A stretch of 64,000 nt of DNA. Origin: a virus. The stretch lies in the IMG/VR virus record IMGVR_UViG_3300037189_015081, positions 32,001-96,000 of that record. One strand, 5' to 3'. The notes below the pieces were generated by a model. It had not been told where the DNA came from. It saw nothing but the letters and a program-made list of their open reading frames with translations, and did no database searches. Each line of letters starts with the position of its first letter. Position 1 is the stretch's first letter. Of this stretch, positions 29,049-47,901 are shown in pieces. Both the position numbers and the translations under genes were made by a program.

Positions 29049-29055
29049 TAGAATC

Positions 29056-31479: not shown

Positions 31480-31668
31480 ACTAGAACTGGAGTGGACTTA
31501 TGGACAGCTTCTAACTTCCCTGTGGGGTTACTAGGAAGTTGGTTTCGTGTCGCTGGCGCGTGTTATATAAATCCATGATATAACTGGCGCAAATTCCGCA
31601 AACACCTGATATAATTCTGTTATGGCGTTGCAACCCAGCATGCCTGTTGACGGAAGTGATATCACTAC

Positions 31669-32238
31669 ATGACAAATACCAAGATCGGATTCCACGAATC
31701 CCTTTTGAAGCGCAAGCGCGAGGCCGACGAGTTTCGCTCAATTGTTTTTGACGCGATCCTTGAGATCGGGCAGCCCGTGACGGTTGCCGAGGTTCAGGCG
31801 TATGTCGGGCAGGAACTCAACCGTGAGTTCAATCAGCCTCGCATTCGCTACGCCTTTGACGCGCTTGTCCTTGAAGGGAAACTTATTCACCGTAAGGAAA
31901 CCGCACAGGAGCGGGTGCTCCGTTTCAACGGGCGTACCCCGGTTGCGGGTGCGGCTGAGCTGTACTATCCGGCGCACATCTCCGGGATTGTCCCAGCCCG
32001 CACGGCGGTGAGCGTGGTACCGGGTGTCGAGTTGACGGGTCCGCTTGGAGCCCGTGGTCGTAAGCCGGGTTCGAAAAACAAGTCGAAGCACGCGAAGCCC
32101 TCTGCGGGTTCGGTTTTTGACGGGCTTGCCTTTGATCTTCTCGTGGAGAAGCTTGTTGAAGCCCGCCACGCGGATCTCATTGCTGAGAACACCGGGTTGA
32201 AGAAGCAGCTCGCGGAAATCCGTAAACTCGTTTCATAG
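31669..32238 (+). CDS. Winged-helix-like DNA-binding protein with AT-hook-like motif and C-terminal coiled coil
   Basis: PVTVAEVQAYV...PRIRYAFDALVLEGKL and RGRKPGSKNK. Confidence 0.65.
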   Translation: MTNTKIGFHESLLKRKREADEFRSIVFDAILEIGQPVTVAEVQAYVGQELNREFNQPRIRYAFDALVLEGKLIHRKETAQERVLRFNGRTPVAGAAELYYPAHISGIVPARTAVSVVPGVELTGPLGARGRKPGSKNKSKHAKPSAGSVFDGLAFDLLVEKLVEARHADLIAENTGLKKQLAEIRKLVS

Positions 32239-32460
32239 CCTGCCTAGCCCGGGGGAGCGTTTACCGGGCGGGTGACGGGTCGACTCCAGTGCCAGTGGCA
32301 TTGGAGTCACACTCGTTTCTAAAACTGGTCACTTTTTTGAAGTGTAGCCTGGGGAGTACTAATAAGCCCGACGGGCGCGTTTTTTGAAGTGTAGCCTGGG
32401 CAGGGGTTTATAAGGCGCTGCCGGGCTGGTTTTTCAGGTCTGCTGCGAAGTCCTCGCAGG
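32237..32460. repeat. Non-coding repeat element with hairpin and 21-bp direct repeat
   Basis: TTTTTTGAAGTGTAGCCTGGG at 32333 and 32380; hairpin GACTCCAGTGCCA-G-TGGCATTGGAGTC; its first 20 bp recur at 39247. Confidence 0.8.
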
Positions 32461-32566
32461 TTAAGCCAGCTTCCTGGTGGGTACACGGAAGAGGCTTGAT
32501 GCTACCCCATCCCGATCCGAAACCGTGCCTGATATAATTGACACGTATCCAACCCAAGGAGGAAAA

Positions 32567-32740
32567 ATGGCAAAGTACAAGATCTACGCAACCAAGACGA
32601 TTACGCTTGAGGCGATCGTCGATGCTGAAAACGAATTCGAGGCATGGACTGCTTCGGATGAGCTCATCACCGATGACTTCGATCAGGTCAACACCGTGTT
32701 CAAGATCGATGAGATCGTGTTCCAAGATCACCTGATATAA
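32567..32740 (+). CDS. Cassette gene, hypothetical
   Basis: AGGAGG RBS; the stop codon lies inside the next motif copy. Confidence 0.7.
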   Translation: MAKYKIYATKTITLEAIVDAENEFEAWTASDELITDDFDQVNTVFKIDEIVFQDHLI

Positions 32741-32795
32741 TAGATATTGCTTCACAAGAGGCAAAATCCGAATGACGAAACGAAACGAGGACAAC

Positions 32796-32990
32796 ATGGA
32801 TCCTTTTGAGTGTGAAATCGAAGGCTGCTTCAACTCAGCCATGCAGGACGCAACACTTTCCAGTGAAACCGAGGGCGATGAAACCCTGCAGCTCTGTGAC
32901 GAGTGTCTCGAGTTCTTCAAGGAAGAGCTCGAGTATGAGATCGTCAAGATCGAACGCTACAACTCGACGTGGACAGGCGACTCCGAATAG
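32796..32990 (+). CDS. Cassette gene, acidic Cys-containing protein
   Basis: GAGG RBS; CEIEGC...LCDEC. Confidence 0.65.
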   Translation: MDPFECEIEGCFNSAMQDATLSSETEGDETLQLCDECLEFFKEELEYEIVKIERYNSTWTGDSE

Positions 32991-33062
32991 ATACCTGATA
33001 TAATTAGATATATCAACGCGGAAACCCAAAATCCGCAATCCGAACGACGAAAGGAAACGCCC

Positions 33063-33377
33063 ATGGACGTTACCATCACCTCAGATAAAGAACGCGCCTG
33101 GTCCAAATTCAAGTCGACCAAGTACGACCACCCCTACCGTGAGAGCCGCGTGTTCGTCGACTTTGGCGAGAACGTGTGGGAACACCTGCAGAACCGCAGG
33201 AACCGTCCCTACACGACGCTCAAGCCTCTCATCGCTGCCGCACTTCGTGAGCGCGGCATTCCCTTCACCAAGCTCTCATGGAACCGCTATGCGGGATGCG
33301 GCATGTGCCCCTGCTCCGGTGGGTTCATCATCGAGGGTGGACAGACTGGCCACGACCTCTGGGTCGCGGTCTCCTAA
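33063..33377 (+). CDS. Cassette gene, hypothetical
   Basis: Motif plus ACGACGAAAGGA leader; WNRYAGCGMCPCSGGF. Confidence 0.75.
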   Translation: MDVTITSDKERAWSKFKSTKYDHPYRESRVFVDFGENVWEHLQNRRNRPYTTLKPLIAAALRERGIPFTKLSWNRYAGCGMCPCSGGFIIEGGQTGHDLWVAVS

Positions 33378-33480
33378 ACCAGGCGCCAGGTCGCGCATCC
33401 CCCCAGTGCGGCCTGGCACCTGATATAATTAGAACATAGCAACACCAACCCAATATCCGTAACGACGAAAGGAGTCCATC

Positions 33481-33909
33481 ATGGGCTACTACGTAAAGAT
33501 CAAAGAATCCACATTCCGAATTCCCGCCGCAAACCTCGACGCAGCACTTGTCGAGCTCAAGGCACTCAACCACAAGCCAGACGTCGAAAAGCACGGTGGC
33601 CACTTCAACAAGGATGGCGCCAAGGACGTTCGCTGGTTCTCGTGGATGCCGGAAGATTACGACAAGCACGTCAAGACCGCTGAAGAGGTTTTCGTTCTTC
33701 TCGGTTTCGAGTGCGAACAGGACCCGGCGACTGGTGATCTTCTCATCACCGACTACGACAATAAGACGGGTCAGGAGGAGCTCTTCCTTGACGCGGTCAA
33801 GAACCTGGTCAATCCAGACTCGTTCATCACCTGGATGGGTGAGGAAGGCGAGATGTGGCGCTGGACTCCTGAAGGAGTCTGGGAACCCGTCATCAGCTGG
33901 CGCAAATAA
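33481..33909 (+). CDS. Cassette gene, hypothetical
   Basis: Motif plus leader; MGY start; W.GEEGE.WRW. Confidence 0.75.
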   Translation: MGYYVKIKESTFRIPAANLDAALVELKALNHKPDVEKHGGHFNKDGAKDVRWFSWMPEDYDKHVKTAEEVFVLLGFECEQDPATGDLLITDYDNKTGQEELFLDAVKNLVNPDSFITWMGEEGEMWRWTPEGVWEPVISWRK

Positions 33910-34001
33910 CCACGACAGGAGCGTCTGCCATGCGGCAGGCGCTCCACTGTCGTAGGCACCTGATATAATTAGCACATAGCGTAACGACGAAAGGACACGC
34001 C

Positions 34002-34409
34002 ATGACTACAAACCCAATCACCTACATCTACGACCCGGCTCAGATGGAAGCCATCTTCGAGGAGCTCACCCGTGAGGGTGGCGAGTACGAGGTAAACGCC
34101 ATTTGGAACACCAAACGCATCTACGACGTTGACGCCCAGAAGTGGATTGACGTCGAGAACCAGACGCACGACACCTTCATCATCAATGACGTGAGCTACC
34201 AGTGGTACCACGGTCACAACATGAAGCACCCGCAGACACCCACGCTCGTCGCGTTCTGGACGTCCAATCACCGCGAGGATGACTGGGACGAGCACGAGGT
34301 CGAGATCGACGCGACTGCGGCTGAGGTCTACGCCTTCATGCGTAGCGTCAATGGCTACGACTTCTATGATGGTCCCGACACCATCGCTGAGGCGCGAGGT
34401 GAGAGGTAA
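34002..34409 (+). CDS. Cassette gene, hypothetical
   Basis: Motif plus leader. Confidence 0.75.
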   Translation: MTTNPITYIYDPAQMEAIFEELTREGGEYEVNAIWNTKRIYDVDAQKWIDVENQTHDTFIINDVSYQWYHGHNMKHPQTPTLVAFWTSNHREDDWDEHEVEIDATAAEVYAFMRSVNGYDFYDGPDTIAEARGER

Positions 34410-34588
34410 TGACACTGCGCGCGGTCATCGACGTCTACTGTGGATACTGTGATGGTGTCCATGAGACGCAGCCCGTCGAGGGAATCATCGATGGTGACAG
34501 TAAGTCCTTCAGCTGGATCGCGTTCTGCCCTGAATGTGATCTCCACATCGAGGGACAGGACTCGATCGAAAAGCTGAATCTCAAGTAG
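34409..34588 (+). CDS. Small CxxC...CxxC protein
   Basis: TAATG coupling; CGYC and CPEC. Not in the ORF track. Confidence 0.65.
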   Translation: MTLRAVIDVYCGYCDGVHETQPVEGIIDGDSKSFSWIAFCPECDLHIEGQDSIEKLNLK

Positions 34589-34634
34589 GCACCTGATATA
34601 ATTAGATATATCAAAACGACGAAAGGAAAATGCC

Positions 34635-34892
34635 ATGGGAATTTACTACCAGGACATCATCAAGGTCGAGGAGAAACTCTTCGAGGACCTGACCACTGCA
34701 CTCGAGTGTGCACGCGCGGACTACGACAAGTGGTGCACGGTGAGCAAGAGCTACACCGAGCTGCGTGACGTTTTCCGTGACGACGCGACTGGCGAGATCG
34801 TCATCAAGTACAAGTACGATGACGACCTTGACGAGTCGGAGCGAGAGGATCGCTTCAGCGTCGAGTGGATGGAAATCGCGACCAGCGTCTAA
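34635..34892 (+). CDS. Cassette gene, hypothetical
   Basis: Motif plus leader. Confidence 0.75.
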   Translation: MGIYYQDIIKVEEKLFEDLTTALECARADYDKWCTVSKSYTELRDVFRDDATGEIVIKYKYDDDLDESEREDRFSVEWMEIATSV

Positions 34893-34939
34893 GACCTGAT
34901 ATAATTAGATCATCAACAAAACGACGAAAGGAAACTGCC

Positions 34940-35404
34940 ATGGAAAATATCCAGAGCAAGATCATCGGAAAAGCTCTCTACCTTGAGCTCCGCAACGGAA
35001 ACTACACCAACCAAATCATTCTGATGCCGGAAGGCACCAGCGCGGAGGGAAAGTACGTGCCCACAACCACGTACCGTCGCCGCATCTCTGAGTCGACGCC
35101 GCGCAAAACCTGGCGCGTCATGTCCAGCCTGTTCCGCAGCGAGCGAACCATCGATGGAACCCTCGTTCCGCTCGGTCGCGAGCACGCGCTCGCCACAGTC
35201 ACAGATCGCCTTGGCTACACCAAGGGACTGTTCGACCAGCTCGTCAGTGGAGGGTACAGCATCTACAAGCAGCCCATCACTGTCGAGGTTACTCCCGAGG
35301 ACCTGGTCGACGTGTACAACGCGAAGACTCCCTACAAGGTCATCGCGCGAATCACCCGTTCGCGCCGTGCGCTTGGCTTTGGCGAAGACCTCTTCGTCAA
35401 GTAG
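34940..35404 (+). CDS. Cassette gene, hypothetical
   Basis: Motif plus leader; start corrected to MENIQ. Confidence 0.75.
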   Translation: MENIQSKIIGKALYLELRNGNYTNQIILMPEGTSAEGKYVPTTTYRRRISESTPRKTWRVMSSLFRSERTIDGTLVPLGREHALATVTDRLGYTKGLFDQLVSGGYSIYKQPITVEVTPEDLVDVYNAKTPYKVIARITRSRRALGFGEDLFVK

Positions 35405-35452
35405 CACCTGATATAATTACATTACCCAAACAAACGACGAAAGGACACGCCC

Positions 35453-36433
35453 ATGAATCCCACGGATTATGATGTGTTATACCCAGGACTCGGAGAGATC
35501 CTGAACTCAGCTGCCACCCAGTCGGTGAACGACGACCTCGCGACACTGCTCGCGAAGTACATGGTCGACCAGGGCAAGGCAGTCGCAAAGACTCCCACCA
35601 AGAAGAAGGTTGTTCCAGTCGTGAACGCTGACGCACTGCTTGGCTCATCCAAGTACAAGCGCCCGAACGGCGACGACTACTTCACCCGCAAGTGGGGCGA
35701 GCACGATGACGTCGAGGTTGTGCGCAAGGCGCGCGACAAGTCACAGTTCATCCTTCTGTACGGTGCGCCAGGTTGCGGTAAGACCGCACTGGTCGAGGCC
35801 GCCTTTGGTGAAAACCTTCACACCGTTCTCGGTAGCGGTGACACCGAGGTCTCCGACCTTGTAGGTGGATACGTCCAGACGCCGTCTGGTGGATTCGTCT
35901 GGGAGGATGGTCCTCTGCTCAAGGCTGCAATCGCTGGTGAGCCGCTGCTCATCGATGAGGTTGGTCTCATCGACCCGAAGGTCCTGTCGATCGTGTACGG
36001 TCTGATGGATGGTCGCCGTGAGTACACTGTCACTGCGAACCCTGAGCGCGGTACCGTGAAGGCGAAGGATGGTTTCTACGTCATCGCCGCCACGAACCCG
36101 AACGCTCCTGGTGTTCGACTCAGCGAGGCGCTCCTGTCGCGATTCACCATGCACGCTGAGATGACGACTGACTGGTCACTCGCCAAGAAGCTTGGCGCTC
36201 CTGCCACCATCGTCACTGCGGCGCAGAACCTCGCGAAGAAGCAAAAGGAGGGCGAGGTAAGCTGGGCACCACAGATGCGCGAGCTTCTCGCGTTCCGTGA
36301 CGTCTCTGCGGACTATGGCACCAAGTTCGCTATCGCGAACCTGCTGGCTGCTTCTCCTGAGATGGATCGCCCGGTCGTCGCTGACGTGTTCACTCGCGTC
36401 TTTGGCGAGGAGTGCCGTCCAGCCAAGATCTAA
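35453..36433 (+). CDS. MoxR/CbbQ/CobS-like AAA+ ATPase
   Basis: GAPGCGKT (Walker A), WEDGPL, LLIDE (Walker B), AATNP and LSEALLSRF. Confidence 0.9.
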   Translation: MNPTDYDVLYPGLGEILNSAATQSVNDDLATLLAKYMVDQGKAVAKTPTKKKVVPVVNADALLGSSKYKRPNGDDYFTRKWGEHDDVEVVRKARDKSQFILLYGAPGCGKTALVEAAFGENLHTVLGSGDTEVSDLVGGYVQTPSGGFVWEDGPLLKAAIAGEPLLIDEVGLIDPKVLSIVYGLMDGRREYTVTANPERGTVKAKDGFYVIAATNPNAPGVRLSEALLSRFTMHAEMTTDWSLAKKLGAPATIVTAAQNLAKKQKEGEVSWAPQMRELLAFRDVSADYGTKFAIANLLAASPEMDRPVVADVFTRVFGEECRPAKI

Positions 36434-36483
36434 CAAGCCCGGTGCCGCGGTTTCTTCGTCGTTCCCGCCGCACCGTTCCCCAA

Positions 36484-36516
36484 GGAGGGGGCCTGATTTG
36501 GGTTCAGGCTCCCTCC
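36484..36516 (+). terminator. Hairpin preceding a motif copy
   Basis: GGAGGGGGCCTGA...TCAGGCTCCCTCC. Similar hairpins near 33383, 33912, 38370, 38723, 39458, 40260, 40308, 42637 and 46195. Confidence 0.6.
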
Positions 36517-36578
36517 ATCTAAAACGACCTGATATAATTAGAACATAGCATAACGACATCTTGACGGAAGGACACGCT

Positions 36579-38363
36579 ATGGCACACATTCACTCTTCAA
36601 ACACCCGCGCAGAGGCAACGCCATCCAAATGGCTCCGACTTGGCGCACAGCTCGGTGAACTCGTAAACACCTGGGCACATCGCACTGACCTGGTTGCCTA
36701 CGTTGGTCCAGGCGCTGGTGGTCAAGCTCCCGCATGTTACAACCCGCGGCTCGCCGAGGTCGAGGTAAACGTAACCGTGGCATTCGGTGCGGCAACCACT
36801 CCAGAGATGATTGACAACATCACCAAGCGCGACACGCAGTTCGAGTACCCCAAGGCAACAGGCGCCATCTACCACGAGGCGCTTCACGCCAAGTACTCAC
36901 GCTGGTCGCTCGAGGATGCAGCACGCGAACTCAGCGAAAAGGAGCTCCAGGCAATCAACCTTCTCGAGGAAACGCGCATCGAGGCAAATGGCGTCAATGA
37001 CGTCCCGAAGAACCAAGTGTTCCTTCGCGCCTGCGCACTGGAGATTGTTCTCGCTGACGCCGAGGAAGGACTCGGAAAGATGACGTCCACTCGTGCGGCT
37101 GCCCAGCTCGCTGGACTCACACTCGCGCGCGTTGACGCTGGTGTCCTTGAGCGCAGCGACGTGGACATCATCGCTGACGTTCTCGATGGGATGCTCGGCG
37201 AAGACCTCATCATCAAGCTGCGTTCCATCTGGAATCGTTTCCAAATGCACGACCAGCACTATGACGCAACGCCGCTCTACGACCTTGCCCGTGAATGGGT
37301 TGCGGTCGTCGAGGAAGCCGCCAAGGATGACGAGCCAGAGGGCACTGATGGCGAGGGTGACGAAGTACCCGAACACATCAAAGAACTTCTCGACGCTCTT
37401 GTAAATGATGCCGAGGCAACTGGGTTTGCTGCCGCAGACCAGGCTGCCGACCAGGCTGAAGGTGAGGCGTGGATCGAGATCGCTGGTGGAAAGTCGCGCG
37501 CGGCAAAGGAGCGTCAGGAAAACGCCAGGACTGCCACCACTGTCTTCAGCAAGGGCACTGGCCCGATGGCAACCAGCAAGTCAAGTTCGCGTCTCTATGA
37601 GAAGCGCAAGCCAACCTCTGAGGAGCGCGTTGCCGCGGTCAAGGTGGCGACCATGCTTGAGAAGGCGAAGTACCGTGAGCGCGACATGCACGAGATCCAG
37701 TCCGTGACTCCTCCCGGTCGCCTGCGCACTCGAGCTCTTGTTCAGGGCGCGGCACTCAAGTCTAAGGGAATCATGGCGCAGACCGAGCCGTGGCGTCGTC
37801 ACGTGCGCAAGCACACCGATGAGCCAACGCTCAAGGTTGGCGTGATGGTCGACATCTCTGGTTCTATGGGTTCCGCGATGGTTCCAATGGCTGTCACCGC
37901 GTGGGTCATGTCTGAGGCGTCTAAGCGCGTTCAGGCACGCGCCGCGATGGTGTACTACGGTAGCGACGTGTTCCCGACCTTGAAGCCAGGTCAGAGTCTC
38001 GACCAGGTGCACGTGTATACTGCGCCTGACGGAACCGAGAAGTTCGACAAGGCGTTCAAGGCGATCGACGGTGCGCTCGATCTTCTGCACGGTGATGGCG
38101 CCCGCTTGCTCGTCGTGGTGAGCGATGGACACTACACCTACGAGGAGACCGCGCGAGCCGAAGCGTGGGTCAAGCGTTGTCACGCTGAAGGCGTTGCCGT
38201 CCTGTGGTTGCCGTTTGACTCTGGCATGATGGCTCAGCGAGTCTGCAAGGGCACTGACGCGATTGTGCTCAGCGGTCGACTGGATCCCGCCGAGGCAGCA
38301 ACCAAGATTGGTCAGGCTGCCGCGATGGCGCTGACCAAGGCAGGCGCACGCGCGGCTGCATAA
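36579..38363 (+). CDS. VWA (CobT-like) protein with N-terminal HExxH motif
   Basis: YHEALH...NLLEETRIE; MIDAS motif DISGSM...T...VVSDG. Confidence 0.88.
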   Translation: MAHIHSSNTRAEATPSKWLRLGAQLGELVNTWAHRTDLVAYVGPGAGGQAPACYNPRLAEVEVNVTVAFGAATTPEMIDNITKRDTQFEYPKATGAIYHEALHAKYSRWSLEDAARELSEKELQAINLLEETRIEANGVNDVPKNQVFLRACALEIVLADAEEGLGKMTSTRAAAQLAGLTLARVDAGVLERSDVDIIADVLDGMLGEDLIIKLRSIWNRFQMHDQHYDATPLYDLAREWVAVVEEAAKDDEPEGTDGEGDEVPEHIKELLDALVNDAEATGFAAADQAADQAEGEAWIEIAGGKSRAAKERQENARTATTVFSKGTGPMATSKSSSRLYEKRKPTSEERVAAVKVATMLEKAKYRERDMHEIQSVTPPGRLRTRALVQGAALKSKGIMAQTEPWRRHVRKHTDEPTLKVGVMVDISGSMGSAMVPMAVTAWVMSEASKRVQARAAMVYYGSDVFPTLKPGQSLDQVHVYTAPDGTEKFDKAFKAIDGALDLLHGDGARLLVVVSDGHYTYEETARAEAWVKRCHAEGVAVLWLPFDSGMMAQRVCKGTDAIVLSGRLDPAEAATKIGQAAAMALTKAGARAAA

Positions 38364-38475
38364 CAAGCTCCAGTGCGGGGACGGTTACCTTCCGTCAATC
38401 GTCCCGTCCCTGCACTGGGTTCTCTGTCAGGGCGACCTGATATAATAAAACTAACAACGACGAAAGGACAGCATT

Positions 38476-38715
38476 ATGGCTGAACAAATCTTCATCTCAC
38501 ACAACGGATCCGGAACCTTCTTCGGTCTGGACGACGACGTGCAGCTCATCAGCGCGACGGACGTCGAGAACAATGACAGCGAAGCACTTGTCTCCGGTGA
38601 CATCTCCGACGTTGCGGTTGACTACGGGTACACGATTACGCCCGAGCTCGCACAGATTCTCTACGAGGTAGCAATGAACTATCACGAAAAGGGAGTAGTA
38701 CCCGTGATACAATAG
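38476..38715 (+). CDS. Cassette gene, acidic hypothetical
   Basis: Motif plus leader. Confidence 0.7.
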   Translation: MAEQIFISHNGSGTFFGLDDDVQLISATDVENNDSEALVSGDISDVAVDYGYTITPELAQILYEVAMNYHEKGVVPVIQ

Positions 38716-38841
38716 TATCTACGGCCGCGGAGGCTACCACTAGTTTCCGCGGCCAAACACATACAACTGAATACCCGCGGCTGATGCGGGACTGTGTGCA
38801 AGAAGAAGCGCGGGAAATACCCACGCAGGAAGGAGAACACA

Positions 38842-39438: not shown

Positions 39439-39546
39439 GTTCAAGCTACTCGTAACGGAAGTGGTCACCAGGTTACTGGTGGCCATTTCTGTCATAGGTG
39501 CCTGATATAATTAGATATATCAACGCAATGACGAAAGGAGCCGATT

Positions 39547-39765
39547 ATGGCTGCTAATGAAATCCCTGAAACTCTGGTCATCAACCTCAAGTTCTCTGTC
39601 GATCGAGACTGGATCGAGGAATACATCGCCGATGGCGAGGAAGTCACCTTGCAGATGATGCTTGACGCTCTTCGCGAACAGGCACTCGAATGGCTCGCAG
39701 ATGACGCGTACAACATGGTTCAGACCGCTGACGTCTTCGACGGAGACGGAAACCAGGTCTGCTAG
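39547..39765 (+). CDS. Cassette gene, acidic hypothetical
   Basis: Motif plus leader. Confidence 0.7.
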   Translation: MAANEIPETLVINLKFSVDRDWIEEYIADGEEVTLQMMLDALREQALEWLADDAYNMVQTADVFDGDGNQVC

Positions 39766-39921
39766 TTGATTGGGTGTCACAGGCACCTGATATAATTAGA
39801 TACATAAGCCCAAACCAAACGGTTTGGATATCCGGAGCGAAAGCACCTGATATAATTAGATACATCAAGCCAAACGGTTTGGTAAACGACGCAAGACAAA
39901 AACCGAAAGGACGTGATGATT

Positions 39922-40248
39922 ATGGCTACTGTCGAGATCACCACTACCATTACCACCCAGACCGAGGTCGCTGACCTCACCGGAACGAACGCAGCGGCCT
40001 TGCTCGCCGAGTTCGAGGAAACCAAGGCTGCCATCAAGGCGCTCGAGGAAAAGAAGGATGCTGCTGAAGCTCTCCTTCGCGAGCTGCTCGGTGACGCGGA
40101 GGTTGCCACCATCAACGGCGAGAAGCTGTTCAAGCTCGTACACGGCATGAACACTAGTTTCGACCGCGAGCTCATGAAGAAGGCATTCCCTGAAGCCTTC
40201 AGCGCGACGCTCAAGAAGAAGGCTTACACCTACATCAAGGCGATGTAG
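39922..40248 (+). CDS. Cassette gene, coiled-coil protein
   Basis: IKALEEKKDAAEALLRELLGDAE...SFD..LMK..FPE.F resembles the C-termini of YqaJ-associated phage proteins. Confidence 0.7.
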   Translation: MATVEITTTITTQTEVADLTGTNAAALLAEFEETKAAIKALEEKKDAAEALLRELLGDAEVATINGEKLFKLVHGMNTSFDRELMKKAFPEAFSATLKKKAYTYIKAM

Positions 40249-40390
40249 GTTCCCAGACTGGATACCGCACGTATGCAGAATGTTGCACAACGCGTGCGGT
40301 ATCCTCCGGCCCTGGTGAGAATCCCCCCTCTCATCAGGGCCATTTCCATTAGTGCGCGGTATCGTAGACACCAGGTCAACAAGGAGAATC

Positions 40391-40561
40391 ATGAACACAG
40401 TTGCTGAGTTACTCAGTGTGGTAAAGACACTCGCGCCTTACGCGCGGATTGAGCAATATCTTGATGGCAACATTGTCATCGTCCTCAATGCGCGGTTGGC
40501 AGATGACAACGCGCACCTTGAACCTCTGGACGCTGACGTTTTTGACGCGGCAGGAGAGTAG
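40391..40561 (+). CDS. Hypothetical protein
   Basis: AAGGAG RBS. Confidence 0.6.
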   Translation: MNTVAELLSVVKTLAPYARIEQYLDGNIVIVLNARLADDNAHLEPLDADVFDAAGE

Positions 40562-40631
40562 ATACCGCGCGGTCATTTGAAGTCGCCTGATATAATCATT
40601 ACAGCAATACAAAATGACGAAAGGAGTCCTC

Positions 40632-40844
40632 ATGGACGCTACCAAACACGACTGCGAAGACGCCGGTGGGAACCTTGACTACTGGGCAGAGACCTTCACC
40701 TGTGAGGACTGCGGCGCGGTACGCGCGGCAACTCAGAGCGAGCTTGATGACTACCGTGCCATGCTCCAGGAGGACTTTGAAAGGGACATGGCAATCATCT
40801 ACCAGCAAGAACTCCGTGACGCCTCTGACGCTCTGGAGAGCTAG
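40632..40844 (+). CDS. Cassette gene, Zn-ribbon-like
   Basis: Motif plus leader; HDC...CEDC. Confidence 0.7.
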   Translation: MDATKHDCEDAGGNLDYWAETFTCEDCGAVRAATQSELDDYRAMLQEDFERDMAIIYQQELRDASDALES

Positions 40845-40922
40845 CGCCCCGAGACTCGAGTACCTGATATAATAGGTACTAGCAACACGGAAACACAAAG
40901 ACAAATGACGAAGGGAGTTGCC

Positions 40923-41105
40923 ATGGCAATTCGACTGACAGACGGAAACGCGTTCGCCATCATCGGTGAGGGACGCGAGGAACTCAAAAAGCAGGGACGC
41001 AGCGATGAAATCGCCCAGTTCACTGCTGAAATGACCGCAGGTGACTACAATCACCTTTTGCAGACCATGCTCCGCTGGTTCCCAGACGTAGAGGTTGGTG
41101 AGTAA
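40923..41105 (+). CDS. Cassette gene, conserved phage hypothetical
   Basis: DGNAFAIIG...GDYNHLL. Confidence 0.75.
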   Translation: MAIRLTDGNAFAIIGEGREELKKQGRSDEIAQFTAEMTAGDYNHLLQTMLRWFPDVEVGE

Positions 41106-41453
41106 ATGAAGACAGCGCTTCGCGTCAACGCGGATCTCACCACTGAGGTCCTCGACCTGACCAATGACGAATACGACCAGCTCAGCAGAGCGGTGGATGG
41201 CTGGATTCAGGCCGTCAACCTAAACCCAAATCTCACCATCTGGTGTAATGAGGAAGGCAAGCTAAACGGCTTGCCAGTCAACATCGCGGGAACAGCGGTC
41301 TGGGAGGAATACTTCGGCCGCACGGACGTAATCGTCGGAAACGTCGTATTCACTGGCACACCAGATGAGAATGGCGACACTCTTCCGCTCGCCGACTTCC
41401 AGGTTGCACAACTCCAGAAGATCGTCGCCAGCGTTCGCGAGCTGACGCAGTGA
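41106..41453 (+). CDS. DUF3846-like protein
   Basis: VDGWIQAV...CNEEGKLNGLPVN...DVIVGNVVFTG. Confidence 0.85.
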   Translation: MKTALRVNADLTTEVLDLTNDEYDQLSRAVDGWIQAVNLNPNLTIWCNEEGKLNGLPVNIAGTAVWEEYFGRTDVIVGNVVFTGTPDENGDTLPLADFQVAQLQKIVASVRELTQ

Positions 41454-41641
41454 CCGAGCGCAAGAAGGCGAAAGGTGCGGGCGTCTGGGAAATCCTGGAC
41501 GCTCACACCGGCGCACGTCTGAACAAGTTTCGTGCGCGGCGTCAAGCAGATGTCGATCGAAACATGCAAATCGTTCTCGTGGGTCTCGGTAAACAGCCAG
41601 ACGACGTCAAACTCGTGTTCGTCGCAGACTGGGAAGACTAG
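41450..41641 (+). CDS. Hypothetical protein
   Basis: GTGA overlap. Confidence 0.6.
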   Translation: MTERKKAKGAGVWEILDAHTGARLNKFRARRQADVDRNMQIVLVGLGKQPDDVKLVFVADWED

Positions 41642-41702
41642 ACCGCGCGGTAACTAGAGTACCTGATATAATTAGAATATCAGCACGACGAAAGGACACC
41701 AC

Positions 41703-41873
41703 ATGAACACTGTAAAAGAAGTTCTGGAACTCCTGGAAACAAAAATAACCGAGACTCAGGAAGAAATCGACGCGGCAGACGCCGCAGGCGAAACTTCAGA
41801 GCTCGAGTACCTTGACGGTCTCATGGAAGCGTACACGCTTATCGAAACCGCAATCAAAACCAAGAGAGACTGA
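41703..41873 (+). CDS. Cassette gene, small acidic helical protein
   Basis: Motif plus ACGACGAAAGGA leader. Not in the ORF track. Confidence 0.7.
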   Translation: MNTVKEVLELLETKITETQEEIDAADAAGETSELEYLDGLMEAYTLIETAIKTKRD

Positions 41874-41880
41874 GGTAGCC

Positions 41881-42093
41881 ATGACAGAAAACATCTGCAC
41901 GGACTGCGGGCTAACGCCAGGCTATGAAATAGCCCAGCACTCTCTCAACAAGGCCGCCTTTATCAAACTTGACTCTGTGAAAGGCGTCATGATGACCGCA
42001 AACCAGCCAGACTACGCTGCGGCCATTGAAAAGGTTCTCACGGAATGGCGAACGCACGCTCTTCCAGCCTGTGATCCGTTGGCAATATCGTGA
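41881..42093 (+). CDS. Hypothetical protein
   Basis: GAGG RBS; CTDC. Confidence 0.6.
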   Translation: MTENICTDCGLTPGYEIAQHSLNKAAFIKLDSVKGVMMTANQPDYAAAIEKVLTEWRTHALPACDPLAIS

Positions 42094-42320
42094 AAGCCGT
42101 CTACTGGATCCAGGCCAGAATGAAAGGTGCCGTTTGGTACCTTGAACGAGGATACATACCAGTCTGGCTGTATGCGGCAATCCACTTCACACTCTGGGCG
42201 ATTGGGTTTACATTACTCGTTCTTCTCCAGCCGCTTATTCTTCTCGCCGACAGGCGCGAATCCCGGTCCCGACAGGGACTAGAAAATGAAACAATGACGA
42301 AAGGACAGGTGGTCGTATGA
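42090..42320 (+). CDS. Small membrane protein
   Basis: Overlap coupling and a TM helix. Confidence 0.5.
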   Translation: MKAVYWIQARMKGAVWYLERGYIPVWLYAAIHFTLWAIGFTLLVLLQPLILLADRRESRSRQGLENETMTKGQVVV

Positions 42321-42616
42321 CAACCGAAATCGAAACAGCAACTGCACCCACGGCAACAGCGAAGAAGCTCGTTCGCGTAAAACCATACACGCGAACTGAA
42401 GAGCTCCCTGAACTTGCCGAGGGAGTGACCCTTCCCGCAGGATACACGCCCGCCTACTTCCGTAAGCGCAAGACCCTTGCGGTTTTGCGCGCGGTTGACC
42501 GAACGCACTACTTGGTGTTCGACACCTCAACTGGAAACAAGTTGAAGGTGGGAACCTGCAAGGAAGCGTCGTCCACGATGAGCGAGATTCGTCGAGGACT
42601 CAAGACCTTCGCGTAA
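42317..42616 (+). CDS. Hypothetical basic protein
   Basis: ATGACGAAAGGA leader; hairpin terminator follows. Confidence 0.7.
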   Translation: MTTEIETATAPTATAKKLVRVKPYTRTEELPELAEGVTLPAGYTPAYFRKRKTLAVLRAVDRTHYLVFDTSTGNKLKVGTCKEASSTMSEIRRGLKTFA

Positions 42617-42745
42617 ATGCCTCCTCGCGAAGAAAAAGGAGAGACCCGGACTGGACCCCGGGTCTCTTCCTTTATGCGGCTGATGACCAGTCTGGAGTGC
42701 ATGATATAATTAGAATATCACGGCAACCAGACGGAAGGAGATGCC

Positions 42746-42916
42746 ATGGCTAAAAACAAAAAGCCTAAGGGCACGGAGAATAAGGCGTACATCGAAGGTA
42801 TGCGTCAGATTCGCCGCTCCAATGCCGCGGGAACGCATGACAGCCGTCCCAACCGCGAACGCACTCGTTCCGCTGCGCGGAACAAGGCAATTCACGAATA
42901 TCGTGACATCTCGTAG
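42746..42916 (+). CDS. Cassette gene, 56-aa basic protein (MAKNKKPKG...RRSNAAGTHDSRPNRERTR)
   Basis: Variant motif plus GACGGAAGGAG leader. Different frame from the ORF-track call. Confidence 0.65.
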   Translation: MAKNKKPKGTENKAYIEGMRQIRRSNAAGTHDSRPNRERTRSAARNKAIHEYRDIS

Positions 42917-42992
42917 CAAATAGAGTAAATACTCCAAAGCACCTGATATAATAGATATATCAGCACAACGACGCATGACGGAAGGAACCATC

Positions 42993-43226
42993 ATGAATGA
43001 AAAACCAAAGTACATCATCCGACGAGCCATCATTGGACTCGCAAGCGTACCATTCATCGCCTCCATCTACACCATCGGATACTCACTGCTCGTACTCGCA
43101 GGAGTAAACCCAACCAGCACGTTCGACGGTGTAATGGTGAACGGTGTCATCATCGGATTCGCGGTAGCAATCGTCTTCACCTTCATCAAGCAGGTAGTGC
43201 GATTCGCGGCATGGATCACGGAGTAA
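42993..43226 (+). CDS. Cassette gene, two-TM membrane protein
   Basis: Motif plus leader. Confidence 0.7.
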   Translation: MNEKPKYIIRRAIIGLASVPFIASIYTIGYSLLVLAGVNPTSTFDGVMVNGVIIGFAVAIVFTFIKQVVRFAAWITE

Positions 43227-43330
43227 CGACATGACAACCAGCACGTACGCAATCTTCGTATCAATTCCGTTCACCAAACTTCAACTCGAGATCGAGATCG
43301 ATCTCCCGCTCTTCAGAAAGGCAGGACGCC

Positions 43331-43603
43331 ATGAGTCTTGAAAATCTACAAATCATCTCAACCGATCACCACCGCAACGGTGTCGGAGGACACCCGTTCC
43401 GCGTCGCACTTGTCGACGACCCGAACGAAGGCGACACGAAACTCGTCATCATGTTCGCGGAACCAGGTTACACCGCGGTGCTATCGCTCGACAAGCTGAT
43501 TCAGGACGAGGACATCGCCTTTGGATCAAACTCGTGGAGAGGCGACAAATACGAAGACGCTCTCCGCGACAAGCTCTTCTCCAGCGATGACGAGGACGAC
43601 TAA
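43331..43603 (+). CDS. Conserved phage hypothetical protein
   Basis: HHRNGVGG.PF...NSWRGD.YE. Confidence 0.7.
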   Translation: MSLENLQIISTDHHRNGVGGHPFRVALVDDPNEGDTKLVIMFAEPGYTAVLSLDKLIQDEDIAFGSNSWRGDKYEDALRDKLFSSDDEDD

Positions 43604-43605
43604 CC

Positions 43606-43935
43606 ATGACCTCGACAGTTTCGATCCGTACGATCCTTGACCAAATCGTTTCCGGTGAACACGATGACCATCTTGCGGTTATCATGAGCACCGCGAGTAC
43701 GCGGCTAACCAGAGTACGCGGCAGCGTTGAGTATGGAATCGGCGACAGGGTCAGATTCAACTCAGCCTGTGGAACCAAGTACCTGATTGGACACACTGCC
43801 CAGGTCGTGGGCAAACGACGCACCAAGGTCGTCGTCAAACTCGACAAACCAACAGGTCGATTCATTCGCATGACATCCGATGGACCAGTCAGCGCGGAAA
43901 TCACTGTTCCACCTGCAATCATTGACCTCGCCTAG
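43606..43935 (+). CDS. SH3/KOW-like beta-barrel protein
   Basis: IGDRVRF...KYLIG...VV...RTKVVV. Confidence 0.65.
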   Translation: MTSTVSIRTILDQIVSGEHDDHLAVIMSTASTRLTRVRGSVEYGIGDRVRFNSACGTKYLIGHTAQVVGKRRTKVVVKLDKPTGRFIRMTSDGPVSAEITVPPAIIDLA

Positions 43936-43988
43936 TCAATACAGCCATTTTCCACACCTTCTTGATACTATTCACCTAAGGAGTTACC

Positions 43989-44153
43989 ATGACAGAACCA
44001 TTGATAAACGCCTGGTACCCTGACGGAACCTGGGTTGGCTCATTCGTAAGCGCGGAATACGCAAAGGAATGGCTAACCAACGCGGGTTACAAGATCGACG
44101 AGTGCGAGGTTTCAAACCGTCGCTACGTTCGTCCTGAAAAGAAAGAAGAATAG
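43989..44153 (+). CDS. Small hypothetical protein
   Basis: TGATACTAT promoter and AAGGAG RBS. Not in the ORF track. Confidence 0.65.
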   Translation: MTEPLINAWYPDGTWVGSFVSAEYAKEWLTNAGYKIDECEVSNRRYVRPEKKEE

Positions 44154-44157
44154 CAAC

Positions 44158-44307
44158 ATGGAACCATGGACAATTCTCGGTTGGATTCTCGTTTTCCTCG
44201 CCGTGTTCGTAGGGGTTGTGTTCTGTATCGCCGTTATCGCCGCGCTATGGATCTCGATCAAGGGTGCAGGCGCCGACCTTCGCGGTAAAAGCCACAATAA
44301 GAACTAG
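44158..44307 (+). CDS. Small single-TM protein
   Basis: MEPWTILGWILVFL...; operon packing. Confidence 0.55.
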   Translation: MEPWTILGWILVFLAVFVGVVFCIAVIAALWISIKGAGADLRGKSHNKN

Positions 44308-44458
44308 CGCAATGGACAGCAAACTTTCCAGCGCGGTTATCGCCTTGGCCTGCGCGGTTGCCATCGTGATTATTCTTGCTATCTCAGCAACAGGTGCCAG
44401 GTAAAATCTTCCCAACCTACCTGATATAATAAGTAATACAAGAGACGAAAGGACGCAC

Positions 44459-44734
44459 ATGGACAAAGAAAAAGTCATCTACTCTGTGCCAGTCAATGTC
44501 AAGCGCGCCGTAAAAATTACCAAGGAAAAAAACGCGCAAGCCGAGGCACTAGCCAAGGCCGCTGTTGAGCCAGCGCCACTCGGGCCAATCAGATCCTGGA
44601 TCAAGTATCACACGACCAAGGACGAATACGGTTTCGTACCAGTCGAAACCCGTGAAGCCTACATCATTGTAGGTATCTGCTACATCATTTTCCTACCCGT
44701 TGCCATTTGCGGCATCGTAATTGCCTTAACCTAA
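44459..44734 (+). CDS. Cassette gene with C-terminal TM helix
   Basis: Motif plus GACGAAAGGA leader. Confidence 0.7.
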   Translation: MDKEKVIYSVPVNVKRAVKITKEKNAQAEALAKAAVEPAPLGPIRSWIKYHTTKDEYGFVPVETREAYIIVGICYIIFLPVAICGIVIALT

Positions 44735-44743
44735 GGAGCAAAC

Positions 44744-45025
44744 ATGAAGGATTACTCAACATACTTCGCCGGATACCGCTACCGTCGCTACGCGGCAGCC
44801 TTGTGGCTCGCTGATCTGCTTTGGGCGGCCGGAATAACAGTCATCGCGGTTTTTGACGCAAATGACTGGTTTGAAATTCTCGCAGCCGCTCTTCTGATCT
44901 TTGCGGGCATATCGTCAATCACGGTTGCCGCTCTACACTTCGTTCACCTTTCACGCGCCGAGTTTGCAAAGATTCGACCGCTTATCGGGGTGGTCAGCCC
45001 TTTCGACTGGAGGTACGGACAGTGA
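44744..45025 (+). CDS. Two-TM membrane protein
   Basis: AAGGAG RBS. Confidence 0.65.
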   Translation: MKDYSTYFAGYRYRRYAAALWLADLLWAAGITVIAVFDANDWFEILAAALLIFAGISSITVAALHFVHLSRAEFAKIRPLIGVVSPFDWRYGQ

Positions 45026-45162
45026 AAAACGCAATACTGTTCAGTACCTACGGAATGACAGCCCCGTGTCACCATTGCGGCAGCCCGGTTCGCGAAGGAA
45101 TAAAGTTCTGCGACCCGTACTGCAGCGTGAGCTACAAGGCGAAACAGCAAGGTGCCAAATGA
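45022..45162 (+). CDS. Small Zn-finger protein
   Basis: CHHCG...FCDPYC; overlap-coupled at both ends. Confidence 0.55.
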   Translation: MKNAILFSTYGMTAPCHHCGSPVREGIKFCDPYCSVSYKAKQQGAK

Positions 45163-45467
45163 CACGCGGCACTGACCAGCGAGAAAAGATCTACGTTCGC
45201 CAAGCCTGTGAGATCTGCAAGGGTGACGAGGTTCTCGTATACGAGGCAGGCGACCAGCTGCTTTGCGCGGAACACACGCGCAAACATCTGCGCGCCAACC
45301 CGACCAAGCAAACCTGTGACACCTGCGGGTCAGATCAAAACGTGTTCCGCGACCCATCACATCGTCGCAATGAGTATCTCTGCATGAGCTGTCACAATGT
45401 GAACGGATTCAAGGTTCAGGACTCTGTCACGATGCGTGCGCTGCGTAACATCGCGGGAGGTTCATGA
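45159..45467 (+). CDS. Double Zn-finger protein
   Basis: CEIC..LCAEH and CDTC..LCMSCH. Confidence 0.65.
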   Translation: MTRGTDQREKIYVRQACEICKGDEVLVYEAGDQLLCAEHTRKHLRANPTKQTCDTCGSDQNVFRDPSHRRNEYLCMSCHNVNGFKVQDSVTMRALRNIAGGS

Positions 45468-45649
45468 TGGGAGAAATCCAGCAGGTCGCCGAGTTGTATC
45501 TTGGCGGTAAATCACTCGTCGAGGTTGCAGCGGCGATGGACATAACGTACGGCAAGGCGAGAAAGTTGCTTGCCGCTTCAGGAACAGAGCTTCGCGACCC
45601 GTCGAAGCGACTAGTTGGGCGCACGCGCCCGGAAAAGGAAAAGAAATGA
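45464..45649 (+). CDS. Small HTH protein
   Basis: LYLGGKSLVEVAAAMDITYGKARKLL..SGTELR. Confidence 0.75.
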   Translation: MMGEIQQVAELYLGGKSLVEVAAAMDITYGKARKLLAASGTELRDPSKRLVGRTRPEKEKK

Positions 45650-45813
45650 GATTCACTCGTTTTATTCGCTCGATCGTTTGGCCCGCAGTACTTGCCGTCG
45701 CGTTTGGCATCGCGGCACTTGCCGTCGCGTTTCTTTCATCGGGCGATCTTGCCCAGGTAATCGCGCTTTCATCAGCCGCGGTAACATCTGCTCTTCTCGC
45801 AACGCGCGCATAA
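45646..45813 (+). CDS. Small two-TM protein
   Basis: ATGA overlap; hydrophobic. Confidence 0.6.
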   Translation: MRFTRFIRSIVWPAVLAVAFGIAALAVAFLSSGDLAQVIALSSAAVTSALLATRA

Positions 45814-45938
45814 CCTGACAAAAAGGTTTCAAACTTTTTTGAACTTTTTTAGCAAAATGACTCCAAATGAGCAATTGACCTGATATAATAGATCTATCAA
45901 CGCCAAACGGCTAGATAAAACGACGGAAGGACAATGCC

Positions 45939-46181
45939 ATGGAAAAGAAATTCTGCCTCCTCAAGATCTCGGACGGTACTCGCGGAGCGAGCGGCAAGAA
46001 GAAGATCTACGAAGTAACTGTCAGCGGTCGCAAGGTGACCATGAGCTGGGGAATGGCTGAGAAGCCAAACCGTCAGACCAAGGTCGAATACGGCTACACG
46101 GAAAACGACGCGATGCAGATCGCGACCAACAAGGTCGGCGAGAAGCTCATCAGCGGATACCAGATGGCGTACAGCGTCTAG
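45939..46181 (+). CDS. Cassette gene, WGR-like domain
   Basis: KIYEV.V....V..SWG...A....K..EK...GY. Confidence 0.7.
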   Translation: MEKKFCLLKISDGTRGASGKKKIYEVTVSGRKVTMSWGMAEKPNRQTKVEYGYTENDAMQIATNKVGEKLISGYQMAYSV

Positions 46182-46298
46182 CAAAAAATCTCCAGGAGAG
46201 GAGACGCCGAAAGGCGTCTCCTTTCTCCATTTGTCGCGCAACTCCAAAGTACCTGATATAATAGATACATCAGCAAGCCAAACAAACAAGGAGTCAAT

Positions 46299-46421
46299 AT
46301 GAAGCGATACATCGACATCGAGGAAATCCAACTCATCGCAGGAGTAACTGCAACCATTCTCGCCATCGCCGGATTCGTCACCTTCGTGGTAACCATCGCT
46401 TACCTGGCAAGCGTGCGCTAG
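46299..46421 (+). CDS. Cassette gene, 40-aa single-TM peptide
   Basis: Motif plus AAGGAG RBS. Not in the ORF track. Confidence 0.6.
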   Translation: MKRYIDIEEIQLIAGVTATILAIAGFVTFVVTIAYLASVR

Positions 46422-46490
46422 TAGGCGCGCCGCTCCAAAGGCACCTGATATAATTACATACATAACGACGCGACGACCAGAGGAGACGCC

Positions 46491-47069
46491 ATGACATCAA
46501 CACTCATCACCAACGCGGCAAGCGAAAAACAAATCAACTTCATCAAGACACTCGTCGACGAACGAGAAATGACGCAGGACGAGCGCGACGCACGACGCAT
46601 GACCACCCACCTGCTCACCAAGAAAACCGCGAGCGACCTCATCGACACCCTGCTCAAGCTACCAAAGCGCACGGACAAGGTCGCCTTCACTTCAACCGCG
46701 ACAGGTTCACTGCAGGAGGCGTTAGCCAAGGCGCCCAAATCCAAGTACGCGATACCCGTCGATGAAATCGACATCGTTGTCGAAAACACGCCGATGCATG
46801 GTGACCTGCTCTTCATCGAAATCCGCGAATACATGAACCGCCTGTTCATGCGCCGCCTGACCGGAGCACCCGGCGGATTCAGCCGCTGGCACGTAAACCC
46901 CAAGGATGCAACCACCATCGTGGAACACATCGCCAAGGACCCATACCGTTACGCAAAAATCTTCGGTAAGCACTACAGCTGCTGCGGAAGTTGCGGCGCA
47001 GAACTAACCGACCCGGTAAGCCGCGAGCTCCAGCTCGGCCCGGAATGCCGAAAAAAGTTCGGAAAATGA
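46491..47069 (+). CDS. Cassette gene, DUF6011-like Zn-finger protein
   Basis: ASEKQINFI N-terminus; CGSCGAELTDPVSRELQLGPEC. Confidence 0.8.
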   Translation: MTSTLITNAASEKQINFIKTLVDEREMTQDERDARRMTTHLLTKKTASDLIDTLLKLPKRTDKVAFTSTATGSLQEALAKAPKSKYAIPVDEIDIVVENTPMHGDLLFIEIREYMNRLFMRRLTGAPGGFSRWHVNPKDATTIVEHIAKDPYRYAKIFGKHYSCCGSCGAELTDPVSRELQLGPECRKKFGK

Positions 47070-47110
47070 AACCATGGTGATAAAATCACCAATAACGAAA
47101 GGAGCCAGAC

Positions 47111-47320: not shown

Positions 47321-47379
47321 CACGCACCCGTCCGGGGGGACATCAACCAATGACACAATGACGAAAGGAATGATGCCCT

Positions 47380-47763: not shown

Positions 47764-47797
47764 CCACAAAACCACTGACCAGGACACCCGGCCAGTA

Positions 47798-47871: not shown

Positions 47872-47901
47872 CAATAAAAACAAACCCGAAGGAGCAGTAT
47901 C

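Follow-up and report, generated by a model that had tools for sequence, protein, structure and literature searches.

Repeated extended -10 promoters in the small-gene arm of a freshwater actinophage, probably doubling as recombination joints

The virus record IMGVR_UViG_3300037189_015081 carries a 15-kb array of small genes in which one short DNA element, CCTGATATAAT, recurs ahead of unit after unit, always in the same orientation. The array lies in the 64,000-nucleotide (nt) window analyzed here (bases 32001-96000 of the 116,681-bp record; positions below are those of the window unless the genome is named). An earlier note on this DNA, made from its letters alone, had taken the repeat to be both the promoter and the module boundary of an integron-like cassette array. 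We consider it probable that the repeats are host-read early promoters that double as short-homology joints on a conserved backbone of genes.

As we picture it, the phage would be of lytic type, with freshwater actinobacteria as hosts and a genome of ~117 kb, and the array would be its arm of early small genes, cut into ~23 short units. Each unit would open with ACCTGATATAAT, an extended -10 promoter of consensus sequence (TGnTATAAT) that works without a -35 element and that the primary sigma-A RNA polymerase of the host would most likely read right after infection. The transcripts would start ~6-8 nt after TATAAT. They would have a conserved 5' end in common and, in the majority of units, a likewise conserved Shine-Dalgarno leader, AACGACGAAAGGA, placed 4-8 nt ahead of the ATG. 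The promoter consensus would be kept by purifying selection across the whole freshwater phage family. The promoter and leader stretches, 25-50 nt in length, would serve as preferred joints for inserting, deleting and moving small genes, because they are the only repeated DNA in this arm.

The repeat has the features of an extended -10 promoter

Exact copies of CCTGATATAAT number 22 between 31605 and 46454, all on the + strand, whereas in 100 shuffles that preserved dinucleotides the mean was 0.02 and the maximum 1; the whole genome contains no copy beyond these and none on the reverse strand. A one-mismatch variant, CATGATATAAT, is found at 42700, within the array, and again at 29039, outside it. 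The count of 22 exact copies and one variant in a single orientation, as first noted, is therefore confirmed and is far above chance. The most repeated 12-mers of the genome are those of the motif. TGnTATAAT occurs 25 times on the forward strand of the genome and never on the reverse strand, 23 of these sites being in the array and the others at genome position 7871 and window position 29041. The site at genome 7871 (locus L054) belongs to a putative promoter of the same class, GTGATATAAT, with a AACGACAAAAGGA leader, and precedes the first gene of the nucleotide-metabolism/replication module.

Alignment of the copies yields a conserved core of 12 nt, ACCTGATATAAT, followed by a looser tAGAtAcATCA. 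The string TGATATAAT, that is, a TG one base upstream of a TATAAT -10 hexamer, is read in 23/23 copies. Information content is ~0 at every position upstream of the core, and a scan for -35/-10 consensus pairs (at least 4/6 matches to the -35 hexamer, spacing of 16-18 nt) is passed by 1/23 copies, the variant at 42700, so that the abrupt start of conservation at the motif and the lack of a conserved -35 are both borne out. Wherever a copy is followed by a gene (22 copies), the first ATG comes 28-59 nt after the hexamer. In sequence, the repeat matches the -35-less type in full and stands ahead of small, mostly unknown genes, which upholds its assignment as an extended -10 promoter.

Such promoters are familiar from actinobacteria. 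In Corynebacterium glutamicum, the -35 is weakly conserved, and TGnTATAAT extended -10 promoters are described as sufficient (PMC3890552); the mycobacterial housekeeping -10 consensus is TANNNT (PMC6529629). The array shares with sigma-70/sigma-A promoters of this type an exact extended -10 consensus in all copies and, like many actinobacterial promoters (PMC3890552), has no -35. It differs in having extra invariant positions (ACC upstream and an A at the n of TGn) and a semi-conserved initial transcribed region. We infer recognition by sigma-A from the sequence of the repeat. Host sigma-A promoters are the best reading because no phage sigma factor or polymerase was detected, all copies point in the direction of the genes, and the class has two further members outside the array. 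The search for Sigma70_r2 gave no match in the whole genome; that for the T7-type RNA polymerase (PF00940) was also without a genome match but carries little weight, as the control search was empty too. Early timing is suggested by the gene content together with analogy to other phages.

The additional invariant bases (ACC and the fixed A) may be recognized by a phage factor or by a partner of RNA polymerase that is specific to actinobacteria. Carried further, this idea would have a phage-encoded regulator bind the conserved positions around the -10 (ACC, the fixed A and AGAtAcATCA), so that the element would be as much operator as promoter. The regulator could act by repressing the early genes or by redirecting RNA polymerase, as the phage WhiB protein might. 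Stoperators in L5-like phages are a case of repressor shut-off of early genes. In favor of a regulator, the flanks of the repeat are lineage-specific yet invariant within each genome, and in the related phage DSL-LC01 inverted GATTC/GAATC arms bracket the -10; moreover, the genome encodes a WhiB-family protein, and the array a weak helix-turn-helix (HTH) candidate, g45467. Some copies also form an inverted repeat, TGATATA-N6-TATATCA, with arms of 7 nt. This repeat is complete in only ~4/23 copies and is absent from relatives with the same 12-mer, and was dropped as a functional element. No repressor was identified in the genome, and the 12-mer is constant across phages at ~55% protein identity, whereas a co-evolving pair of factor and site should drift. 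We therefore consider a regulator site improbable, and host-read promoters remain our preferred account of the repeat.

The Shine-Dalgarno leader

The repeat is accompanied by a second conserved element, which in relaxed form (GA[AC]G[AG]AAGGA) occurs 17 times on the forward strand of the window and not at all on the reverse strand; the exact string ACGACGAAAGGA is present eight times. Fifteen of the 17 leaders, in 15/23 units, are situated downstream of a promoter copy and ahead of its first ATG, and the others, at 42296 and 47360, precede genes without a promoter of their own. The leader ends 4-8 nt before the ATG, with AACGACGAAAGGA as its consensus. The GAAAGGA within the leader complements the 3' terminus of the 16S rRNA of actinobacteria, and the sequence of the leader suggests a role in translation.

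The repeat is conserved in related freshwater phages

Scanning IMG/VR with the CobT-like protein of the array returned 44 loci at 46-64% identity, and 45 related loci were compared. CCTGATATAAT has at least five forward copies in 25/45 of these loci (262 forward and 9 reverse in total), and the leader has at least five in 28/45 (308 forward and 8 reverse). The loci come from freshwater viromes, and in these 25 of them CCTGATATAAT is the dominant repeat, even though the proteins are only ~55% identical. Judged from these sequences, CCTGATATAAT is a conserved promoter consensus of a large phage clade and not private to one genome. Conservation of the 11-mer across the clade argues for selection on function rather than homogenization within one genome.

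The position of the hexamer relative to genes is conserved as well. A TATAAT lies within 90 nt upstream of 18/19 homologues of g34940 and 11/12 homologues of g45939, as opposed to 0/18, 0/13 and 0/15 for homologues of operon-internal genes. DSL-LC01, a metagenome-assembled lake phage, has the same layout of an endolysin, ~50 small genes including the ATPase-CobT pair, terminase and portal. Its repeat reads gATTCTAAAG(A/T)TGTTATAAT-aGAATCA and is followed by the same ACGACGAAAGGA leader, and its TATAAT hexamers number 25 forward and 1 reverse. The main texts of the DSL-LC01 paper ("promoter" and "repeat") and of the COBRA paper ("promoter" and "intergenic") contain 0 occurrences of these words; motif analyses may be present in the supplements. 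Searches of the literature for CCTGATATAAT, TGATATAAT and ACGACGAAAGGA as text strings gave no phage paper by title among the matches listed.

Other sublineages carry other elements, namely CAAGGTATAAT, the DSL-LC01 form, a canonical TTGACA-N17-TAnnnT, or unrelated AT-rich repeats. Compensation by a -35 in sublineages lacking the TG did not hold up cleanly: TTGACA-N17-TAnnnT is present in L030, but a weak T.TACTT is also seen upstream in lineages that bear the TG. In L033-L040, L042 and L047, the same ATPase-CobT backbone is accompanied by quite different intergenic repeats in place of the TATAAT promoter (for example CGTATTCATTTTTTCA, with 18 copies in L042, AAAACTGAAATTTTTTA and GAGGTAAAAATT), frequently preceded by T-rich terminators.

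Homologues of 14 array genes are present in 13-45 of the 45 loci, mostly in the same order. Breaks in order amount to 1-4 per locus and stem mainly from g39916, whose homologue is upstream of the ATPase in most relatives, and g45939, whose homologues are found in at least three different contexts. No homologue in the 45 loci was found for 15/38 array genes; these orphans make up 6/14 genes in single-gene promoter units and 9/24 inside multi-gene units.

Gains and losses of genes at the repeat

Twenty-four pairs of closer relatives (75-99% identity) provided 116 alignment breaks; these tests were made on relatives, with heuristic gene calls and with events that are partly dependent on one another. 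Of the 47 clean insertions or deletions (indels), 11 are flanked by direct repeats 24-48 nt in length, and in all 11 cases the repeat consists of the promoter, with or without the leader, or of the leader, with the position of the junction varying inside it. Unique insertion sites fall within -30 to +60 of TATAAT in 24/36 cases compared with 272/539 gene junctions (binomial p = 0.037), and 4-10% of random positions qualify as near TATAAT. Recombination between the flanking repeats is the presumed cause of these indels. One insertion of another kind, of 660 bp and low GC content, lies just upstream of a promoter copy in L028 (9304-9964) and has its own, different -10; its open reading frame (ORF) resembles, presumably and as read by eye, a GIY-YIG-type homing endonuclease.

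A scan of metagenomes recovered the sole relatives that permit direct comparison with this genome, L058 (CobT 83% identical) and L059 (70%). In L058, the closest relative, an extra block begins precisely where the ortholog of the motif copy at 32731 ends. The block comprises an empty promoter, a promoter-headed homologue of g45939 (a gene 13 kb further on in this genome), promoter-headed genes of 116 and 79 amino acids (aa), and a promoter-less gene of 124 aa with its end right ahead of the following copy. In both phages, the g32567 homologue terminates within the motif, each time in a different frame, indicating that the motif supplies the stop codon. Tandem empty promoters, 47-79 nt apart and without an ORF, are present at 39786-39856, L059:5021-5157, L059:5452-5541 and L058:1416-1477; one pair of L059 is orthologous to the pair at 39786/39846, the short first unit of which contains a small hairpin. 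Such a tandem unit may yield a tiny non-coding transcript, act as a double promoter or be a scar of recombination. Of the sequencing runs, X1 is probably the source, X2 contains a near-identical strain at low depth, with contigs of 200-380 nt, and X3 and X4 contain only pieces of conserved genes and the tRNA; no motif-to-motif joints are listed in the run contigs, which cannot show rare forms.

The strongest challenge comes from the simpler notion that these are ordinary repeated early promoters, with motif and leader conserved for expression and nothing else. Viable indels have to be intergenic in any case, about half of the gaps hold a promoter, and BLAST extends alignments through a shared motif and so shifts the breakpoints. 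Several observations count for this notion and against a role as joints. The ends of the 47 indels lie at the motif on both sides in 10 cases, on one side in 22 and on neither in 15, which is about what independent ends would give if each were at the motif ~45% of the time. Among 34 replacements, both ends are at the motif in 3, one in 12 and neither in 19. The enrichment of insertion sites is weak (67% vs ~50%, from heuristic gene calls and partly dependent events), and 12/36 sites are away from any copy, several of them at ATGA-type overlapping gene junctions. The order of the backbone is largely conserved across relatives at ~55% protein identity, all ten left-hand units of L058 are collinear with this genome, and orphans are as common inside operons as in single-gene units. 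Other observations weigh against our preferred reading as a whole: searches of the genome for a RecT or ERF annealing protein came out negative; the invariant ACC before the TG and the invariant A of TGA exceed what sigma-A is known to need; the flanks are lineage-specific (TTCTAAAG(A/T)TGTTATAAT in DSL-LC01, CAAGGTATAAT in L010, L012, L013 and L018); and the left arm of Pumpernickel, a cultured relative, is without such a repeat.

Ordinary promoters do not easily explain the rest of the data. Illegitimate insertion would not produce 24-48-nt flanks that are promoter or leader in all 11 instances, the excess of insertion sites at motif junctions (24/36 vs 50%) is modest but present, empty tandem units occur in this genome, L058 and L059, and the homologue of g45939 changes its context together with its promoter. 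We consider it unlikely, although worth keeping in view, that expression alone accounts for the repeats. The data are most simply read as conserved early promoters that also act as frequent, non-exclusive recombination joints. Alignment of the relatives, which could have placed breakpoints at the motif or revealed conserved order and content, thus gave an outcome in between. What survives of the proposed module boundary allowing gain, loss and reordering is that gain and loss often start or end at the repeat in relatives (24/36 sites); what does not survive is the motif as an exclusive boundary, in view of the collinearity of 14 backbone genes and of ten units in L058, the 12/36 sites elsewhere and the orphan proportions given above.

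The possibility of an integron-like system at the repeat

Upstream genes were said to end 1-2 nt from the motif at 32990, 34588, 34892 and 35404. Their stops do abut the motif, with gaps of 3, 3, 2 and 2 nt, respectively, and at 32740 the stop (TAA) is inside the motif as described. A hairpin was said often to precede the next copy, which is overstated: the 57 nt that lead up to the motif fold at -18 kcal/mol or lower for 8/23 copies and in 21.5% of 400 control windows, and hairpin strength does not differ significantly between copies and controls (Mann-Whitney p = 0.21). Four of the hairpins are very strong (-28 to -35 kcal/mol). As a group they are sporadic, and their sequences differ and are not conserved.

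These features bear on whether a dedicated recombinase acts at the repeat in a site-specific, integron-like manner. Such a system would fit the uniform orientation of the cassettes, the stops that abut or fall inside the motif, and the presence of a small serine recombinase gene (genome 27703-28410, - strand). As in integrons, small unrelated genes form a one-way array parted by a recurring element. In contrast to integrons, neither IntI, attI nor attC is seen here, and the cassettes are not promoterless, each having its own promoter. No tyrosine recombinase (PF00589) was matched in the genome at E 0.1 or better, whereas the control matched in 14/14 genomes, and the serine recombinase gene is on the other strand, at a distance of ~35 kb. 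Promoter and leader apart, no conserved element was seen that could correspond to attC, only hairpins of differing sequence at 8/23 sites, and the indel junctions shift within promoter or leader, as they would for homology-driven and not for site-specific events. On these grounds, an integron-like mechanism is close to refuted, and the integron comparison of the earlier note, taken strictly, is not sustained. The serine recombinase itself (235 aa; L055:7703-8410) stands alone on the opposite strand beside the primase-helicase gene and has a Resolvase domain and part of a Recombinase domain, being too short for a typical large serine integrase.

Comparison with known systems

The array resembles, by analogy, the shuffling of promoter-early stem-loop (PeSL) cassettes in T4-type phages, with a different architecture. 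Comeau et al. in 2014 reportedly also dealt with these cassettes. PeSL elements, described by Arbiol et al. 2010 (PMC2839356), likewise come in many copies of a strong host-type early promoter that ends in a Shine-Dalgarno sequence and start codon. They cluster in a hyperplastic region whose genes are small and for the most part unknown, just as 23/25 copies here fall in the 15-kb arm, and differential genes of close relatives are often contiguous with a copy (10/14 between phi1 and RB49, to be set beside 24/36 sites here; PMC2839356). In both systems, insertions are directed to intergenic positions that tolerate them and carry signals for their own expression. The T4-type element is ~100 bp long and has a -35, a -10 and an AT-rich upstream region, whereas the element here has a -10 only, with a core of 12 nt and a loose 11 nt. 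The stem-loop is part of the T4-type element but is outside the repeat here and found at 8/23 copies; here a separate conserved leader can also be the joint. The phage in question is not T4-like, and its host is an actinobacterium. Promoter activity and mini-circles have been shown for PeSL; the array is known from its DNA sequence alone.

The leader brings to mind the start-associated sequences (SAS) and the associated ESAS elements of Cluster K mycobacteriophages (Pope et al. 2011, PMC3203893) and Cluster EF Microbacterium phages (Jacobs-Sera et al. 2020, PMC7302621). These are well-conserved, asymmetric motifs of ~13 nt that contain a Shine-Dalgarno core and further conserved bases (PMC3203893, PMC7302621). 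Like the leader, they are found in a single orientation a few nt before the ATG of non-structural genes (4-8 nt here), are conserved across subgroups even ahead of unrelated genes, and have a second conserved element immediately upstream. The sequences differ, AACGACGAAAGGA here as against GGGATAGGAGCCC or GGGAAAGGACCCC in SAS (PMC3203893, PMC7302621), and so do the upstream partners, a recognizable promoter here and a 17-bp inverted repeat in SAS.

A bolder proposal can be put forward only tentatively. The invariant -35-less promoter and the conserved ribosome-binding leader could make up a portable expression adaptor, kept identical between the deeply diverged genomes of a global family of freshwater actinophages, by which small genes are swapped between co-infecting relatives through short-homology recombination, possibly with mini-circles as intermediates, and are expressed at once. 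Such an adaptor would be PeSL-like and would have arisen independently in phages of Gram-positive hosts.

To our knowledge, no promoters have been mapped in uncultured freshwater actinobacteria or their phages. The repeat and leader would furnish a precise promoter and leader consensus for both, and the array would mark the early gene set of a large, widespread and uncharacterized phage family. The notion of repeated regulatory cassettes that double as recombination joints would extend from T4-like coliphages to actinophages with a different promoter architecture. The element could also be used as a compact part combining a strong promoter and a ribosome-binding site for actinobacterial genetics. 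If the promoter role alone holds, this is a tidy annotation result and not a new mechanism.

The phage genome and the setting of the array

The "terminal repeat" of the record is an 87-bp exact overlap, indicating a circular assembly. The portal protein is 69.5% identical to that of Actinomycetia phage DSL-LC01, its next matches being Microbacterium, Arthrobacter and Gordonia phages, consistent with the actinophage originally suspected. Outside the array, the genome encodes a family-A DNA polymerase, SNF2 helicase, PD-(D/E)XK nuclease, primase-helicase, thymidylate synthase, dCMP deaminase and the WhiB-family protein.

A Pfam family at E 0.01 or better was assigned to 6/38 array genes (AAA_5 ATPase, VWA/CobT-like protein, DUF3846, weak HTH, weak WGR and DUF6011) and to none of the other 32. 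All-against-all blastp of 50 proteins gave a single weak pair over 25 aa; the array genes are not paralogues, and the possibility of paralogous cassettes was rejected. The description of the cargo as unrelated short genes is hence correct as to unrelated but not as to short, since the array includes an AAA ATPase of 326 aa and a VWA/CobT-like protein of 594 aa. Among 50,697 phage records, the array had no megablast match; its blastn matches were confined to the ATPase/CobT genes, and an Rfam scan of 29000-49000 returned nothing except the tRNA. The features are collected in Table 1.

Table 1. Promoter copies, leaders and neighboring features (window positions)
Feature	Position	Strand	Remarks
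Array	31604..47070	+	23 promoter-headed transcription units, 38 called genes; between endolysin gene and tRNA-Pro/terminase region
Promoter copy 1	31605..31615	+	gene 31669-32238 (189 aa)
Promoter copy 2	32528..32538	+	gene 32567-32740 (57 aa), its stop being the TAA inside copy 3
Promoter copy 3	32731..32741	+	gene 32772-32990; left breakpoint of the L058 extra gene block
Promoter copy 4	32994..33004	+	gene 33063-33377
Promoter copy 5	33419..33429	+	gene 33481-33909; strong hairpin upstream, 33368-33420, -28.1 kcal/mol
Promoter copy 6	33959..33969	+	genes 34002-34409, 34409-34588; hairpin 33910-33956, -35.1 kcal/mol
Promoter copy 7	34592..34602	+	gene 34635-34892
Promoter copy 8	34895..34905	+	gene 34940-35404, a backbone gene with homologues in 37/45 loci
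Promoter copy 9	35407..35417	+	AAA_5 ATPase gene 35453-36433 (326 aa)
Promoter copy 10	36528..36538	+	VWA/CobT-like gene 36579-38363 (594 aa); hairpin 36474-36526, -30.1 kcal/mol
Promoter copy 11	38436..38446	+	gene 38476-38715, uncertain ORF 38794-39438
Promoter copy 12	39501..39511	+	gene 39547-39765; hairpin 39447-39500, -32.2 kcal/mol
Promoter copy 13	39786..39796	+	first of tandem pair; 60-nt unit without ORF
Promoter copy 14	39846..39856	+	genes 39916-40248, 40391-40561
Promoter copy 15	40586..40596	+	gene 40632-40844
Promoter copy 16	40863..40873	+	genes 40923-41105, 41106-41453 (DUF3846), 41450-41641
Promoter copy 17	41662..41672	+	four genes over 41703-42616
Promoter copy 18, variant CATGATATAAT	42700..42710	+	sole copy with a -35-like hexamer; gene 42746-42916
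Promoter copy 19	42942..42952	+	five genes over 42993-44307
Promoter copy 20	44420..44430	+	~five genes over 44459-45813
Promoter copy 21	45879..45889	+	WGR-like gene 45939-46181
Promoter copy 22	46252..46262	+	gene 46299-46421; hairpin 46198-46223
Promoter copy 23	46444..46454	+	gene 46491-47069 and onward
Same-class variant CATGATATAAT, outside the array	29039..29049	+	6 nt upstream of gene 29056-29430
Leader, example GACGAAAGGA	33046..33055	+	
Leader starts	33464, 33986, 34618, 34923, 35436, 36563, 38459, 39530	+	
Leader starts	40616, 41687, 42296, 42730, 42977, 44444, 45922, 47360	+	
Tail fibres	2-20 kb		
Endolysin gene	30703-31479		left of array
tRNA-Pro, anticodon TGG	47798-47872	+	directly right of array
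Kinase-like gene			between tRNA-Pro and large terminase
Large terminase	49685-51088		
Portal	53208-54965		followed by large virion proteins

Further observations concern single loci. Contigs of many other organisms stack on the tRNA-Pro gene in all four sequencing runs. An ORF of 2279 aa lies 3' of the portal gene (55659-62498, +) and has no PHROG or Pfam match. A 24-nt near-tandem repeat (32333-32356 and 32380-32403) is situated in the 289-nt non-coding gap before promoter copy 2, and an exact repeat of 20 nt is found 7 kb apart, at 32237-32256 and 39247-39266, with unrelated flanks.

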